From Fibrobacteria bacterium (GTDB lineage Bacteria; Fibrobacterota; Fibrobacteria; UBA11236): a stretch of 21,757 nucleotides of DNA. Positions 12,001-18,000 of the stretch are shown here, piece after piece; positions within the stretch are counted from its first letter, which is position 1, and each line of letters opens with the position of its first letter. The position numbers are program-made. The stretch lies in contig JBGTHM010000017.1 in NCBI GenBank assembly GCA_041746255.1, positions 1-21,757 on the forward strand, in the 5' to 3' direction.

Positions 12001-15000
12001 TGGGCTGGCTGGAACCGGGATTATACTCTTTATCTCTGACGCTGCCCTCAATCGGAACAATGACAACCCGGGTTTTGACCTTCCGGAAAATTTCTGCGGC
12101 TATTTCCCGGCTGACATAGGCCGAGTTGTACCAAATTCCGTCCAAGTGCTCGCGCACATAAGTCCATTTATTCTCGTTGACCGCATCGGCCAGGGGGCTA
12201 GCGCCATGAAGAGCCATGAAGACTCTTGGACGGCCAAGAATATCATCGGGTATTTTTTCCACGGTGACCGATACGATGCGACCGTCCAAACCCCTGTCAT
12301 CCGAAAAACAGTCGTCATCTTCGGGCTTGATCATGAAATCGCCATTGGCCAGTGTGAAGCGAACTCGGTATCCGGGGGCTACCTTCACCGAGGCAATACT
12401 GAATTTTGGCAGACCGAGGTCCTTAAGCGTGTCTGTGCTATAAAGTCCGATTTTGGTGAGGCTGACCTGGGTTCCCGCATGGTTGCAGGCTGAATAGACA
12501 TTGGCCAAAGAGGGCGGTACGGAGCTGGTAATCCGTAAGTTATTTGCCTTGTTTTTAACCTTGTGCAAGAGCGAATTTATCGTATCCGGAAAATGGCGTA
12601 CATATTCCCGTTGTGGATAAAAACCGGGTTTGCTGAATAAAAGCGTGTCGGCAAGAGCAAGGTTCGACTTTGCGAGGGGAGTATTTTTGAAGGTATCCCT
12701 TGCGGGAGCATAAGAGCTTGGGAAGCCAGAGCGGCCCACGTTATTTCCTGTATATGCAATTCTATACGCCCGAATTTCGTCATCCATTTTCAAGCGCAAT
12801 AAAAAAATGCCGGGCTCCAAATTTGACACAAGTGAGAATAGAGAAAAAATCCCTGGTGGAGGAATCTTGTCGTTAAGGGTTGCGACCAATACACCCCGCA
12901 GATTAAAAAGTTCTGCCGATATGCGCATTTTTCCATCGGTGAGAATTTGCAAGGAACCCATGAAAGGAGATGGGGCGGGGTTGAACCTTATCAGGTTGGC
13001 GCTAAGGGAGGTAAAACTATAGACTCCTTCCGAATTGGTGATTGCCGTATCGCTGCGAGTTGCAAATTTTACCATAACTCCGGGAATCCCGGTATTGGTA
13101 TAGTCGACGACTTTTCCACTCATCACCGGAGCGGAAAGGGTATCTCCAGGAACGGTCATCAAAAGGAGTGCGCACACTCTAATGAAAGAGTATTTAGCCG
13201 AAGTTACAAGTATTTTCAAAACACTCACCTTTGCCATTGATCTCCTCTTCACTATAATCCTGGAGACGCTACATTACCCCAATTTTATACCGAAAAGTTA
13301 CCGGAATTCAGGAGTTGGGAACTTTCATGTCCCTTAACCTACGCCACGGGAAGGTTCGTCGCAACATCTCACTTAACCGAACTGTATTTTATGTAAAACA
13401 ATAAATGGATATTGGGTTATGGAAGTTCTTGAATTGATGAAATACCGGCTACTGAGAAATCGATTATGTGTGATTAGTTTAAGCAAATAAGGTTTAAAGG
13501 AGGTAAATTAAGGGTGTGGCGTTAAGCAGCTAGGATAGGTTTTAGGTGCTTGAGCGACTCCTTTTCCTTAAGCGGCCAAAGGGGATTGAATGAATTTTCT
13601 TTTAATGAATAGCCTTATGAAAATTTCCATTATCGGTGTACCGGCAACCCTTTCCTGGACTTTCTCCGCCCTATCCGCCTCAAAAAACCGGTTTCAATTT
13701 TAAAGCTCACCGAAAAATGCAAGATATTATCACATATTCCGATTTCCGGGTTCTGTTGAAGGACCTTTTCGTTCAAAGGAAAAAGGAAAATCCCCGCTAT
13801 TCCTATCGTGTATTAGCCAGAAAGGCCGGTTTCAAATCCGCCGGTTATTTTGGAAATCTTCTGAGTGGAAAATGCAATCCTTCCTTGACCATGGCCTACA
13901 GGCTGGCCGAAGCTTTCGACTTGAAGCGATACGAAGAGGATTTTTTCGTGACCTTGGTTCAGTTCAATCTTGCCGCAACAGCTTCCGAAAAGGTGAAGTA
14001 TTACGAAAAGCTCAATTATCTTAGCCGGACCGAATTAAAAATCCTGGAAGCAGAACAATACGGGTATTTCGGAGCATGGTATAACATTGCCATTCGGGAG
14101 ATCCTGGACTATTACAAATTCAAGGGTAATTATGCTGAGCTTGCCAATATGGTTGTTCCAGCCATTTCCCCCGTAGAAGCTAAGCAGGCCATAGCCAACC
14201 TGGAATCGGTCGGAATGATTCGCAAAAATCCGTTCGGCCATTATGAGAAAATAGATTCCGCGGTAACGACACCACCATTATGGAACTCCGCGGGAATTGC
14301 GAACTACCAGAATCAATGTCTCGACCTGGCCAAGCAGTCATTCGACAGTTGGGAAAGGAAATTTCGTGACGTTTCTACTTTGACGGTGAGCATTGCCGTG
14401 GATGAATTTCAAAAAATTCAAGAGAAGATCAATCAAGTCCAGGAGGATATCCTGCTTATTGCGCAGAACGTGGACAAGGCGGATCGAGTCTATCAAATCA
14501 ATTTTTATTCGTTTCCGTTGACTCGGATAGGGGAGAAGCTTTAGACCATGTATCGAATAATTCACATATTTGCTTTCGCGGCCTTCTTAATCGGATGCCA
14601 ATTCTTCAGCACAGATCCTTCCTCCACCGAGCCTGATGAGTATGCAGGCGGCGGCACCCGTACTACTAACGGCGAAGTGGCGGGAAGGATCAAGTTCCCT
14701 GACGCGTCGCCTGCGGAGGGTGTGCAAATCCGTTTATATAAAGTCTTTTTGGCGCATGAAAATGAATCCTATTCCGCTGAATGGGCCGGTCTTAGCGATA
14801 GTCTGGGGAACTTTTCCTTTCGGGACGTTCCTGCGGGTAATTTTGCCATGTCGGTAATGGACCGAATAGCCGGAACCAAGGCCATTATGCCGAGAATCAG
14901 CAAAGGTAGAGAAGGGTTCGTTATTATGGACGCAGTCCTTTCTCCTTGGGTTACGCTGAAAGGCAGGGTATTTCCTTCGGACTCCGCATCACCTGAAAAT

Positions 15001-18000
15001 ATCCAGATATGCATTCCCGGATTACCGAACTGCATCAAGCCGGGCCCGGATAGCGTTTACATCTACCCCGAAGCGCCCCAGGGAAATTTCGATCTGGTTT
15101 TTCTGTATGATGACATTGCGAACTACCTCCCCATTCGGGCGACCCGGAGCGAGGAGGACACCCTCTATCTCAGGGATATCGAACTGGATCCCGCCGTGGC
15201 GTCGAGTCCCCGATCAGGTCACTTTTATGAAACCAGCGCGGAAAAATCGGTGTATATTCTTCCGGCCGTCTATGGTCCCGGTAACAGACCGGGCTGGTAT
15301 ACGGGAAAAAAATTCGACCGCATCCAGTACTTCACCTCCGCGAGTGATAACCCCTTGCAGCAATGGAATTTCGAGGATTATAAGGAATGGAGTCACAGCC
15401 GAATTATTGAAGTCCCGGCTTATCGACCCCAATCCGCCGGGAATTCGGTTCAAGTGAATTTTCCGCATTACCTGCGGCTCACCGGTATGGAACTGGATTT
15501 TTCCCAGGTAGCTTCCGAAGGAACGGATATTCGCATATCCAGTGAGTCGGGCAAACATTTGACGTACCATATCGCAAGATGGGATTCAGCCAGGGGATTG
15601 GCCGATCTCTGGGTGAATATCGACACTTTACGTTCCGCCGCTACCCCGGCAAAATTGGTTTTGTATTGGGGGAATCCGGATGCAGAAGACCGCTCCGATC
15701 CCATGGCTGCTTTGGGCCCTATCCCGGAAGCCCGGCATTTGTGGCCTCTAGACGACAACGTGCAGTCTTCGCTGGTCAGTGACTTGCGTGGTACCCATCC
15801 CGGCTATTTGACACGCATTGGGCTGGGTAAAGATTTAACCGTCAACCATGCCGTAGCGGGAGTTCTCGGAGGAGCTTTGCGGCTTGATGGAATCCGCGAT
15901 CAAATCACTATTGACCCGCATCATGTGCTGGATAGTCCCCAAATGACCCTCTCCGTTTGGGCCAAGAATTCGAAATCCACTCTCTCAGTGCAACAGTACA
16001 TCGTACGGAAAGGGGAGGGCGGTAAAAAACAATGGCATCTGGCCTTGGATGCAACGAATAAAATCAGGGTTGCAATTGGTAATTCCGAGAAAAAACAAGT
16101 GGGAGTCTGGGTCAGCAAGAATGCAGTCGAAATTGACCAATGGCACCAGTATACTTTTACTTTCCAAGCCGGTGTGGTAAGAGCCTACCTTGACGGCGAG
16201 GCATTGGCGGGTACGGTATTCGGTTATTTCCCCAAGGCAATTCCCGGGTTTAACTCGACTCTCATGTTGGGTCAACGGATCGTTGAGAGTGAGCAATTCT
16301 GGTCCGGCGATATCGATAACCTCATGCTGGAAGACAGAGCTCGAGATCCGGATTGGGTTCGTATGCTCTATCAGACCCAGAAACCCGTTCCCTAGTTTAA
16401 TATTCTAGATCCGGTATTTTAGAGTTTTTATAGGGTCTTACGTATTATTAAGAATACAGAATCTTATGAATTAGCAATGCAGCTAAATTTTTAGGCGATA
16501 TATTAGGAGGGAATGTCATGTAGATACCTTGGAGGTTACTCATGCTCCGAATGGAATTGCCTTGGATTACTTTTTCGACGCTTCTATCAATCGCCGTGGT
16601 TGCGCCCAGTTCGGCACAGCCGCTAAGCTGGAAAAATACCGGCAATTTCGACTACGCGAAACACCTTGCCAAAACGCCCTCCCAAGGCGCTGGCCTTCCG
16701 GACATGCCCCCGGGTTTTGAAGCATCGCTGGCGCATCCCAATAACTTTAATCCGGTTGTGAGTGGATTGGACTTCCTTTCCGATGGGCGTATGGTGCTTT
16801 TACACTCATCCTATATGAGTAGGGGCGCCATAATCTACTTGGTAGAAAATGCCAGCGGCCCGCGGGAAAATATCAAGTTCACGAAAATAGCGGAAAACCT
16901 GTTGGCTCCTTTTGGAGTGAAGGTCATCAATGATGAGATTTATTATACGGCGCAGGATGGAATTTGGAAGCTGGTAAAAACCGGGAGTACCCCGGAAAAG
17001 TGGGAGATCAAATTCCTCGCCAAATACATCGTTCCCGGAATGGAAGCCGGAGCGTCGAAAGGATCCCGCTATCCCTTCTTCAATATCGTTCTTGCCAACG
17101 GTGGACTCTATTTCGGCAACGGCGCCTATAAAAATTTCAACCCTCCGGGTACCAACGAAGGGTATGCGGTGCGCTATGATTTGGCTACCGGGGAGCAGGA
17201 AGTAATCAGCAAAGGCCTCCGAATGCCCAATGGGATGGGGGCAAATGCTGCCGGAGACGTTTTCTACGCCGATAATCAGGGCGAGTATCGGCCCGGGAGC
17301 CCCATTTACCATTTGGGAAAAGGGAGACACTTCGGCATGGCCGCAGTCCGGGGCCTGGAAGATAATCAAGGCGGACATATGAAGAACATGTTTCCTCCCC
17401 CTCCAGCCGATTCCATCACCCCTCCGGCGGTATGGGTGCCCTTCGGCGACGAGAGTCGTTCCCTAACCAATATGCACTATCTGAACCATACGGGTTTCCA
17501 AGGCCAATTTCTGGTCGGCGACAACGCTAAAGGCGTAGTACATCGAATTTTTTTGGAAAAAGTAAAAGGCGAGTATCAGGGTGCTTCCTTTCAATTCAGC
17601 GGAATCCTGGAAGCCGGAATCCAGAGTTTCGCCACGGGACCGGATGGTACGATATTCGGAGGCGCGCTCGGACAAGGGGCCGGACATAATTGGAAAGGCC
17701 GGAAGCAAGGTTTGATGAAATGGAAGCCTATAGGAGGGCCACTGCAAGCCATTGAACGGGTTTCCTCCCAAAGTGAAGGATTTGATATTGTTTTCACCGA
17801 GCCTTTGGCTGCCAATGCCATTAAACCGGAAAATTTCTGGGTTCACTCCTATCGGTATGAACCCACTTCCGATTATGGCGGGCCCGCCGTTGATAAACGC
17901 AATCATAAGATCACCAAGCTGGAAACCAACTCAGATCGAAAAACCCTCGCAATTACCGTGGACGGCTTGGAACCTAAGCGCATCTACCGTATCATGCTAG

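Follow-up and report, generated by a model that had tools for sequence, protein, structure and literature searches.

A DUF4423 regulator-lipoprotein gene cassette and a candidate operator palindrome at a glycan-degradation locus of a Fibrobacteria bacterium

Why should the gene for a predicted cytoplasmic DNA-binding protein be followed so closely by the gene for an exported lipoprotein? The question arises in a 21,757-nt stretch of a Fibrobacteria genome (the window), in which a TIGR02147/DUF4423 gene lies among genes for sulfatases, polysaccharide lyases and sugar dehydrogenase-like proteins:

1046..4880, minus strand: two GSDH (PQQ-type sugar dehydrogenase-like) genes, 1046-2857 and 3135-4880 (Pfam GSDH)
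5225..11364, plus strand: sulfatase (5225-6928), heparinase II/III-like (6992-9106) and PL8 chondroitinase-AC-like (9142-11364) genes
11375..13252, minus strand: exported 625-aa protein, encoded divergently to the cassette and matching CarboxypepD_reg weakly
13717..14544, plus strand: TIGR02147/DUF4423 regulator gene, 275 aa (TIGR02147 and PF14394 matches, AF2 model)
14548..16395, plus strand: partner lipoprotein gene, 615 aa (signal peptide, lipobox LIGC, tagged tether, CarboxypepD_reg-like beta-sandwich, DUF2341, Laminin_G_3)
14548..14598, plus strand: signal peptide and lipobox of the partner, residues 1-17, MYRIIHIFAFAAFLIGC, with Cys17 (read from the sequence)
14644..14676, plus strand: post-lipobox tag AGGGTRTTNGE of the partner, residues 33-43, directly before the first beta-strand (alignments)
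16542-18359, plus strand: exported 605-aa protein of no known family
18590-19798, plus strand: ThuA gene
19846-21513, plus strand: sulfatase with a T9SS sorting domain

A phmmer search of all stop-to-stop frames of the 130-contig genome recovered 21 full-length TIGR02147/DUF4423 paralogs and one 91-aa fragment; in the paralog on contig C5, ATG, GTG and TTG are all absent at the aligned N-terminus. As the genome-wide survey's note had claimed, the next ORF behind each of the 21 full-length genes lies on the same strand and encodes both a hydrophobic leader and a Cys. This lipobox-type leader was read from the sequence, rather than by a dedicated predictor, in 21/21 partners, and a rough lipoprotein rule picks up 17 of them; the partners range from 217 to 621 aa. 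Measured from the most upstream start of the partner, the gaps between the two genes are -4 nt (12 pairs), -8 (3), -23 (1), +1 (1), +3 (3) and +6 (1), and in the window the partner gene begins 3 nt past the regulator stop codon. The tight spacing described earlier was thus confirmed, with different figures: 15 pairs rather than 13 overlap by 4 or 8 nt, and the gaps run from -23 to +6 rather than from -8 to +48, the latter upper value being consistent with later start choices for the partner. The pairing recurs in 10/10 sampled relatives with downstream sequence and in 20/20 loci of five other families of the phylum, and we found no published description of it in the full-text literature. The spacing alone suggests that regulator and lipoprotein would be co-transcribed.

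What do these lipoproteins have in common? After the lipobox Cys, every partner carries a tag that fits the pattern AGG-x(2-4)-[ETD]-x-[GT]-N-[PGA], at a distance of 0 to 15 residues from the Cys. When an HMM trained on the tags of the 21 partners was searched against 22,654 ORF translations, a search that is circular for the partners themselves and informative for the absence of other carriers, the 20 complete partners ranked within the top 23, and the three non-partner matches among these lacked a signal peptide. No other signal-peptide ORF among the translations bore the tag; the earlier description of the motif as phylum-specific is supported by the tag's presence in 17 of the 20 partners from the five other families. 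A general export signal is unlikely, since the tag is confined to the 21 partners among about 227 lipoprotein-like ORFs (227 of 3,722 rough genes by a rough predictor).

It is quite possible, if short of probable, that the tag serves to direct sorting or processing (surface exposure, cleavage of the tether or modification) in this partner class only, with the link to the regulator amounting to co-expression. It forms a linear motif close behind the lipobox, within a tether that is predicted to be disordered (in the window, a flexible region with pLDDT <50), it precedes unrelated first domains, and it is conserved across the phylum. A precedent exists in Bacteroidota, where, according to a preprint (bioRxiv 10.64898/2026.10.03.756453), a short signal after the lipidated Cys drives surface export and LptP, a subunit of the export machine, occurs throughout the wider superphylum. 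Both motifs are short, lie just past the lipidated Cys and belong to the same superphylum. However, that signal is a negative charge at most six residues from the Cys on many surface lipoproteins, whereas the tag is Gly-rich with a conserved Asn, lies at a variable distance from the Cys and is limited to the DUF4423 partners, and both this variation and this limitation speak against a sorting role. By hand count, residues that would fit the Bacteroidota signal occur in 10/21 partners, including that of the window (QFFSTD).

The first gene of the pair belongs to a family that has many paralogous copies in Fibrobacterota. The window regulator matches TIGR02147 with 244 bits (cut-off 50) over positions 1-271 of 272, and PF14394 with 101.9 bits (cut-off 30). 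TIGR02147/DUF4423 was found in 140/151 sampled Fibrobacterota genomes and in 0/14 control genomes. This genome holds 22 DUF4423 matches, and 30 of 31 relatives hold 2-81. The number per genome increases steeply as genomes grow larger (log-log slope 2.36, r 0.83, n=30); regulator families typically scale in this way. A full-text search returned no literature for TIGR02147 ('Fsuc_second') and, for DUF4423, only a table entry in a Bdellovibrio proteome; the family description carries no function, pairing, tag or operators.

Could the regulator bind DNA? In the AF2 model (pLDDT 88.9), structure prediction shows two domains. Residues 7-91 form a five-helix XRE-type HTH fold (3pxp, Z 9.4; DdrO, Z 8.3; C.AhdI, Z 7.3 and rmsd 1.9), with Foldseek probabilities of 0.99-1.00 (SinR, C.AhdI; 1.0 for C.AhdI). 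Residues 109-270 form a predicted winged helix with a helical extension, ArsR/SmtB/MarR-like at Z ~8: CmtR, CzrA, SmtB and Phr match residues 109-190 (to 270 with the helices) at Z 7.9-8.2, which is middling by the tool's scale. At the sequence level, no Pfam HTH model (HTH_3 and relatives) matched the window regulator at E<=0.01, there was no Pfam match to ArsR/SmtB/MarR-type regulators, and profiles against solved structures gave weak values of E 0.02 (9sf2) and 0.063 (C.BclI) on the XRE side and E 0.1 to a metal-dependent regulator for positions 123-181.

The controller proteins C.AhdI and C.BclI, DdrO and the HigA antitoxins, whose fold residues 7-91 match, are dimers that bind palindromes and autoregulate. 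Unlike C.AhdI, DdrO and HigA, the window HTH is fused to a winged-helix domain of ~170 residues, and its downstream gene encodes a lipoprotein instead of the restriction enzyme, protease or toxin found beside C.AhdI, C.BclI, DdrO or HigA. On the other side, the winged helices of CzrA, CmtR, SmtB and MarR superpose on residues 109-190 (75-85 residues aligned) at an identity of only 9-19%, and the C-terminal helices of the window regulator superpose on the dimer helices of these families. In the ArsR/SmtB and MarR families, the winged helix itself reads DNA.

The window contains a candidate binding site for such a protein. An 18-bp palindrome, TGTWTTTTWWAAAAWACA, is present in all five window intergenic regions of at least 140 nt:

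2997..3014, strand not applicable: candidate operator TGTATCTTACATAATACA, upstream of the GSDH gene 1046-2857 (minus strand)
5092..5109, strand not applicable: candidate operator TGTTTTACTCAGAATACA, between the divergent GSDH (3135-4880, minus strand) and sulfatase (5225-6928, plus strand) genes
13383..13400, strand not applicable: candidate operator TGTATTTTATGTAAAACA, within the divergent promoter region that precedes the DUF4423 gene
16441..16458, strand not applicable: weaker candidate operator CGTATTATTAAGAATACA, between the partner gene and the one that follows it (PWM score 16.9; left out of matrix building)
18497..18514, strand not applicable: candidate operator TGTTTTATTCAAGAAACA, upstream of the ThuA gene

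Candidate operators thus precede both GSDH genes. The pattern TGT-N12-ACA, which like the wider GT..AC form was defined post hoc, after inspection of the data, occurs 8 times in the window against 2.5 expected, and 0/100 shuffles reach 8; genome-wide, intergenic TGT/ACA pairs number 69 at spacing 12 compared with 22-42 at spacings 8-16. The information content of the candidate operator is limited to the 18-mer. A PWM built from four window sites gave 17 further hits scoring at least 17.9, of which 7 lie on contig C83. This contig makes up 1.5% of the genome and carries a 74%-identical sister paralog, itself with the palindrome TGTATTTTATAAAATACA at -152, and another of its sites adjoins the DUF4423 fragment. 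The predicted recognition helix is identical between the window and C83 paralogs. The genes around the sites make up a functionally coherent set: sulfatases, lyases, GSDH, ThuA and 3-keto-disaccharide hydrolases. The survey's note had listed the lack of a shared upstream operator against a regulatory role; that objection is weakened for the window regulator and its C83 sister, since the palindrome lies upstream of both and fronts glycan-degradation operons, and the candidate operator is new relative to that note. We infer that the window regulator would be the binder of this palindrome.

Might the palindrome instead be the site of an unlinked regulator of sulfated-glycan genes, with the DUF4423 operon merely a target and DUF4423 acting otherwise? 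We consider this unlikely. About 10 of the 17 best non-training hits do lie on contigs without a DUF4423 gene (C127, C129, C107, C16, C53, C5, C56, C37, C123), but the assembly is fragmented, so seemingly unlinked contigs may be neighbours. The motif was found in 0/11 relatives within 450 nt upstream of their DUF4423 genes; the recognition helices of those 11 differ from that of the window regulator. Within this genome, however, both sister paralogs have the motif upstream, a third, fragmentary copy has it alongside, and none of the other 19 paralogs is preceded by it. DUF4423 is the sole DNA-binding-type gene seen on the window contig (C17) and C83 (12/12 window proteins and 43/44 rough C83 genes covered), no other DNA-binding domain being found on either. 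Furthermore, the same arrangement recurs with different palindromes at two other paralogs: that of the C32 paralog is repeated beside three alginate-lyase-family genes, one BNR_4 gene and one PL14 gene, and that of the C45 paralog between two sulfatase genes. For about 15 of the 21 paralogs, no upstream palindrome of this type was found.

The surroundings of the cassettes bear on the glycan-utilisation role proposed in the survey's note, and they support it in part. Lyase, sulfatase or lectin-like genes occur in 9/21 paralog neighbourhoods, and the other 12 hold housekeeping or unknown genes. In Bacteroidota, polysaccharide utilisation loci (PULs) have many paralogous local regulators beside secreted glycan-degrading enzymes and a surface glycan-binding lipoprotein, the regulators being SusR, hybrid two-component systems or ECF sigma/anti-sigma pairs. 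The cassette resembles these in that paralogous local regulators lie near genes for glycan-degrading enzymes and a lipoprotein. On the other hand, the DUF4423 family is unrelated to the PUL regulators, and the cassette regulator differs from them in being soluble, in having no envelope sensor and in being translationally coupled to the lipoprotein. Neither a SusC-like TonB-dependent transporter nor a SusD-like lipoprotein was found among the 12 window proteins (Pfam), nor were SusC/SusD families found in the 91 genes neighbouring the other 20 loci at E<=1e-5.

Taken as a whole, the explanation that we favour, and hold to be reasonably probable, is that of a cassette regulator acting at the palindrome over a local glycan-degradation regulon. 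The gene pair of the window is one of 21 copies of a two-gene cassette. Its first gene would encode a cytoplasmic DNA-binding regulator with an XRE/Cro-type HTH and an ArsR/MarR-like winged helix with a helical extension; its second, translationally coupled, a lipoprotein with a tagged flexible tether followed by variable beta-sandwich and lectin-like domains. A dimer of the regulator would bind the 18-bp palindrome and thereby control the operon to which it belongs as well as neighbouring operons for secreted sulfatases, PL8/heparinase-type lyases, GSDH-type dehydrogenases and ThuA. Judging from the sites, the two GSDH genes and the sulfatase, heparinase II/III-like and PL8 operon (5225..11364) are putative regulon members, and, jointly with its C83 sister, the window regulator may act on comparable genes at other places in the genome. 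As for the partner, it is probably the part of this regulon that binds glycans at the envelope. The gene pairing, the palindrome and its clustering are observed and the folds predicted; the location of the partner, the effector of the regulator and the role of the tag are matters that we infer. The survey's proposal of DUF4423 proteins as local transcription regulators gains from the two predicted DNA-binding-type domains and from the palindromes near the window, C83, C32 and C45 paralogs.

What, then, keeps the tag in place? A functionless tag, a relic of the common descent of the partners' 5' ends copied with each cassette duplication, appears quite improbable. Regulator and partner distances do correlate (Mantel r 0.63 both for the tag segment and for the remainder of the partner; 0.48 and 0.47 without C83; 0/5,000 permutations reach these values), which indicates that cassettes duplicate and diverge as units. 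However, the tag has been kept in cassettes whose regulators share only 23-35% identity and whose partner domains following the tag belong to different Pfam families, and its setting is a tether, predicted to be flexible and varying in length, in which a neutral sequence would be expected to decay. Moreover, 17/20 partners from five other families share it, and its Gly codons use all four synonyms, which points to selection at the protein level.

That the pair is a signalling unit, in which the second domain of the regulator would sense the lipoprotein's tagged N-terminus, or a peptide set free from that end, as in the Gram-positive regulator-plus-exported-peptide systems, is highly improbable: the coupling is strict, the tag is exclusive to partners and its variants track regulator clades, but co-duplication alone predicts such co-divergence, the regulator has no signal peptide, membrane segment or TPR-type peptide-binding domain, and no peptide importer is linked. 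By RRNPP standards, too, a TPR match or fold is absent from the window regulator, and the partners, at 217-621 aa, are not small propeptides.

There is, finally, a speculative idea to which we give little credence: the tag, and not the variable lipoprotein body, would tie the two genes together, with an envelope-recognised or released peptide feeding back on the cognate regulator. If true, such feedback would be a new envelope-to-DNA signalling unit, present in up to ~80 copies per genome.

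In the window, a gene of the TIGR02147/DUF4423 regulator family is followed by a lipoprotein gene that begins 3 bases past its stop codon.

13717-14544, + strand: DUF4423 regulator gene (275 aa; TIGR02147 244 bits against a cut-off of 50, Pfam DUF4423 101.9 bits)
14548-16395, + strand: partner lipoprotein gene (615 aa; hydrophobic leader to LIGC with Cys17, then DUF2341 and Laminin_G_3)

The assembly holding this contig, C17 (4.59 Mb, 130 contigs), encodes 21 full-length paralogs of the regulator and one fragment (phmmer, all frames). The genome-wide survey's note had proposed that regulator and lipoprotein genes come in pairs, and we observed a same-strand downstream ORF with a leader and a Cys behind all 21. 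With the most upstream start taken for each partner, the gaps are −4 nt in 12 pairs, −8 in 3, +3 in three, and −23, +1 and +6 in one each. The cassette is basically a two-gene unit, since the next gene lies on the opposite strand in 9 of the 20 pairs that have downstream sequence. The partners range from 217 to 621 aa and vary in domains (CarboxypepD_reg, DUF2341, Laminin_G_3, Beta_helix, fn3), and 7 have no Pfam match at an E of 0.01 or better. Distances between regulators correlate equally with those between the tag segments (the short motif behind the lipobox Cys) and those between the remaining parts of the partners (r 0.63 for each; 0.48 and 0.47, respectively, without the C83 paralog), values that none of 5,000 permutations reached. 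The cassette thus duplicates and diverges as a unit, a co-divergence that does not by itself demonstrate physical interaction. Complex prediction, run on the regulator and the N-terminal 45 residues of the mature partner, gave a median score of 0.29 (mark 0.32; controls not run), which argues neither for nor against binding.

Two observations concern individual cassettes. In the paralog on contig C5 (~67753-68623, + strand; L007:6001-6843), the aligned N-terminus lacks an ATG, GTG or TTG; its aligned first codon is ATT, and the first canonical start would cost ~45 HTH residues. Its partner gene is intact, and the paralog either uses a non-canonical start or is a decaying copy. Three cassettes (C95, C16 and C108), whose small partners belong to no Pfam family, have a same-strand ORF of 130-265 aa lying 3-30 nt upstream of the regulator, which could mean that these cassettes have three genes or could stem from the rough gene calls.

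L011:7705-8097, − strand: ORF upstream of regulator, no Pfam match
L012:5377-5997, + strand: ORF upstream of regulator, no Pfam match
L013:5173-5970, + strand: ORF upstream of regulator, no Pfam match

The AlphaFold model of the regulator (pLDDT 88.9) has two domains. Residues 7-91 form an XRE/Cro-type HTH (3pxp, Z 9.4; DdrO, Z 8.3; HigA, Z 7.8; C.AhdI, Z 7.3 with an rmsd of 1.9), and residues 109-190 form a winged helix, matched by ArsR/SmtB/MarR proteins at Z near 8, with helices continuing to ~270. Solved XRE proteins are matched only weakly by profile, the Pfam HTH models do not match, and no full-length structural match was found (nothing in Foldseek at an E of 0.001 or better). Of 151 genomes sampled from the phylum, 140 carry the family, compared with 0 of 14 control genomes. 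Among the relatives, 30 of 31 carry it, with 2-81 matches each, and the number per genome climbs with genome size (log-log slope 2.36, r 0.83, n = 30), as regulator families typically do. In the full-text literature searched, 'TIGR02147' was absent, and 'DUF4423' appeared only as a table entry for Bd3700 in a Bdellovibrio proteome study (PMC12546842). Searches on Fibrobacter succinogenes lipoproteins, helix-turn-helix or transcriptional regulators and outer membrane vesicles returned nothing on the family.

Could such a protein act on its own operon and on those around it? The genome-wide survey's note had seen no shared operator. That still holds for ~15 paralogs, for which no such palindrome was found, but the C17 and C83 paralogs share an 18-bp palindrome upstream; this candidate operator and its predicted regulon are new here. 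Palindromes of 16-20 bp with TGT...ACA ends lie upstream of several paralogs.

C83, −152: palindrome with TGT...ACA ends upstream of paralog
C45, −141: palindrome with TGT...ACA ends upstream of paralog
C2, −140: palindrome with TGT...ACA ends upstream of paralog
C32, −119: palindrome with TGT...ACA ends upstream of paralog
C95, −215: palindrome with TGT...ACA ends upstream of paralog

The pattern TGT-N12-ACA occurs 8 times in the window compared with 2.5 expected, a count reached in none of 100 shuffles, the TGT...ACA and GT-N12-AC patterns having been defined after inspection of the data. Genome-wide, intergenic TGT/ACA counts are 69 at spacing 12 compared with 22-42 at any other spacing between 8 and 16. 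The window sites at 2997, 5092, 13383 and 18497 are intergenic and mutually alike, and together with a fifth, weaker one at 16441, they occupy each of the five intergenic regions that are at least 140 nt long. A matrix built from the four alike sites gave 17 other hits at 17.9 or above, 7 of them on C83, a contig of 67 kb (1.5% of the genome) whose sister paralog is 74% identical to the window's regulator, with an identical predicted recognition helix. One C83 site is that at −152 of the sister paralog and another adjoins a DUF4423 fragment; 10 of the 17 best hits are on contigs that carry no DUF4423 gene (the assembly is fragmented). The sites are conserved only within the 18-mer. A scan of all 12 window proteins and of 43 of the 44 rough C83 genes turned up no other DNA-binding domain on C17 or C83, and we infer that the palindrome is bound by the DUF4423 protein.

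When the regions upstream of the C17 and C83 paralogs were aligned, no extended conservation was seen; the shared 18-mer emerged only from a pattern search. TGT-N12-ACA was upstream of none of 11 relatives' genes, and the recognition helices of these 11 differ from the window's. Palindromes in general are only modestly enriched upstream of the 21 genes: 6 of the 21 upstream regions contain a 16-mer with 7 of 8 pairs, compared with 249 of 1,755 controls, and GT-N12-AC palindromes, a pattern picked post hoc, occur at 1.04 per kb compared with 0.20 per kb. A sigma-70 promoter and terminator scan of 13200-16700 returned fewer sites than shuffled sequence. A look-up of sequencing runs for 12800-17000 returned no RNA run. 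The C83 fragment (C83:55311-55586, − strand; L048:4311-4586; 91 aa, PF14394 28.8 bits) is divergent from a sulfatase gene, has an 18-bp palindrome upstream at C83:55814, and is probably what is left of a third cassette belonging to the window's subfamily.

The genes beside the 18-bp sites encode sulfatases, GSDH-type dehydrogenases, ThuA, 3-keto-disaccharide hydrolases, xylose-isomerase-like TIM barrels, BNR_4 and a lactonase and, in the window, include a heparinase II/III-like protein and a chondroitinase-AC-like PL8 lyase. The C32 and C45 paralogs repeat the operator pattern with different palindromes. That of C32, TGTTYCC-N4-GGRAACA, adjoins three alginate-lyase-family genes, one BNR_4 gene and one PL14 gene, and that of C45 is found again on C95 (one mismatch) and, with three mismatches, on C120 between two sulfatase genes. 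The C32-type palindrome, at −119 of its own DUF4423 gene, is scattered over about ten contigs (including C32, C5, C41, C53, C57, C65, C66, C118 and C10) and adjoins DUF5060 genes too. The label of glycan-utilisation loci fits only a subset of the DUF4423 neighbourhoods. Lyases, sulfatases, GH15 or lectin-like genes occur at 9 of the 21 loci (two upstream and three downstream rough genes), mainly those of the paralogs nearest the window's, but the other 12 have housekeeping or unknown neighbours, such as 2-oxoglutarate dehydrogenase, citrate synthase, topoisomerase IV or FtsW with PBP.

Several features of these neighbourhoods were recorded alongside. Four window genes for secreted enzymes (5225-6928, 6992-9106, 18590-19798 and 19846-21513) have products whose C-termini resemble the T9SS type A sorting domain (TIGR04183). 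The last of them, a sulfatase, is alone in passing the cut-off (23.6 versus 23 bits), the other three scoring 16-20 bits. The longest ORF of the PL8 lyase (9007-11364) overlaps the heparinase-like gene by 100 nt, and its start is more likely at 9142, where a signal peptide (MKITHSLVG...) begins. Between the cassette and the ThuA gene, behind a candidate operator, 16542-18359 (+ strand) encodes an exported protein of 605 aa with no Pfam or NCBIfam match. C83 as a whole forms an island in which at least nine genes for sulfatases and five for GSDH proteins lie alongside others for 3-keto-disaccharide hydrolases and xylose-isomerase-like proteins; the contig also encodes a large CheB-CheR-PAS-histidine-kinase-receiver fusion protein of 1,498 aa.

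The best-supported reading, which we consider somewhat probable, is that of a self-regulated cassette. The two-domain DNA-binding protein would control its own operon and also operons, close by or scattered, that encode secreted enzymes of glycan degradation, and the coupled lipoprotein may serve as a binding component in the envelope.

What, then, is the tag for? It is present in every partner, 0-15 residues behind the Cys and directly before a beta-strand, with the general form AGG-x(2-4)-[ETD]-x-[GT]-N-[PGA]; in the window's partner it is AGGGTRTTNGE. The survey's claim that the motif is peculiar to the partners was borne out. A tag HMM run on 22,654 ORF translations placed the 20 complete partners inside the top 23, a test that is circular for the partners themselves; the three non-partner ORFs lack a signal peptide, and no further carrier was found in the genome, which has ~227 lipoprotein-like ORFs (rough predictor). 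A loose regular expression matches eight non-partners, none convincing by eye. Tags resembling AGGGG[IV]ETT[NED]G were found in 9 of 10 sampled relatives. In five other families of the phylum, a downstream ORF was present at 20 of 20 loci, with a clear lipobox at 19 and the tag or a GGSEV variant at 17 (by eye). The tag is real, selected, phylum-wide and restricted to the partners.

Because of this restriction, the tag is unlikely to be a general signal for surface export. Our preferred guess, a tentative one, is a signal for sorting or processing that serves this class alone. The Bacteroidota signal for surface lipoprotein export is defined in a 2026 preprint by charge after the Cys, with one translocon subunit, LptP, reported across the wider superphylum (bioRxiv 10.64898/2026.10.03.756453). 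A signalling role is conceivable but unsupported, and we rate it as quite improbable. Membership of a folded domain finds no support in the AlphaFold model of the first 135 mature residues (21 aligned homologues): residues 6-22, covering tether and tag, have a pLDDT below 50 (no proof of disorder), and the first strand, opening a beta-sandwich with a pLDDT near 90, starts only at residue 25, right behind the tag. The tag is therefore a linear motif in a tether that is probably flexible. A nucleotide element, Shine-Dalgarno-like or other RNA or DNA, is ruled out, since all four Gly codons appear in the tag at roughly the proportions seen genome-wide, which places the constraint at the protein level.

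Fibrobacterota have a major part in the degradation of polysaccharides, those of plants among them. The control of their degradative genes is little understood, and they are not known to have the SusC/SusD loci of their Bacteroidota relatives. The DUF4423 family, being so widespread in the phylum and rising so steeply in copy number with genome size, is an obvious candidate for the missing local regulators, and the predicted operator and regulon make this idea directly testable. Furthermore, its strict coupling to the sole tag-bearing lipoproteins may hint at a step of sorting, processing or signalling in the phylum's envelope that has so far gone unrecognised.
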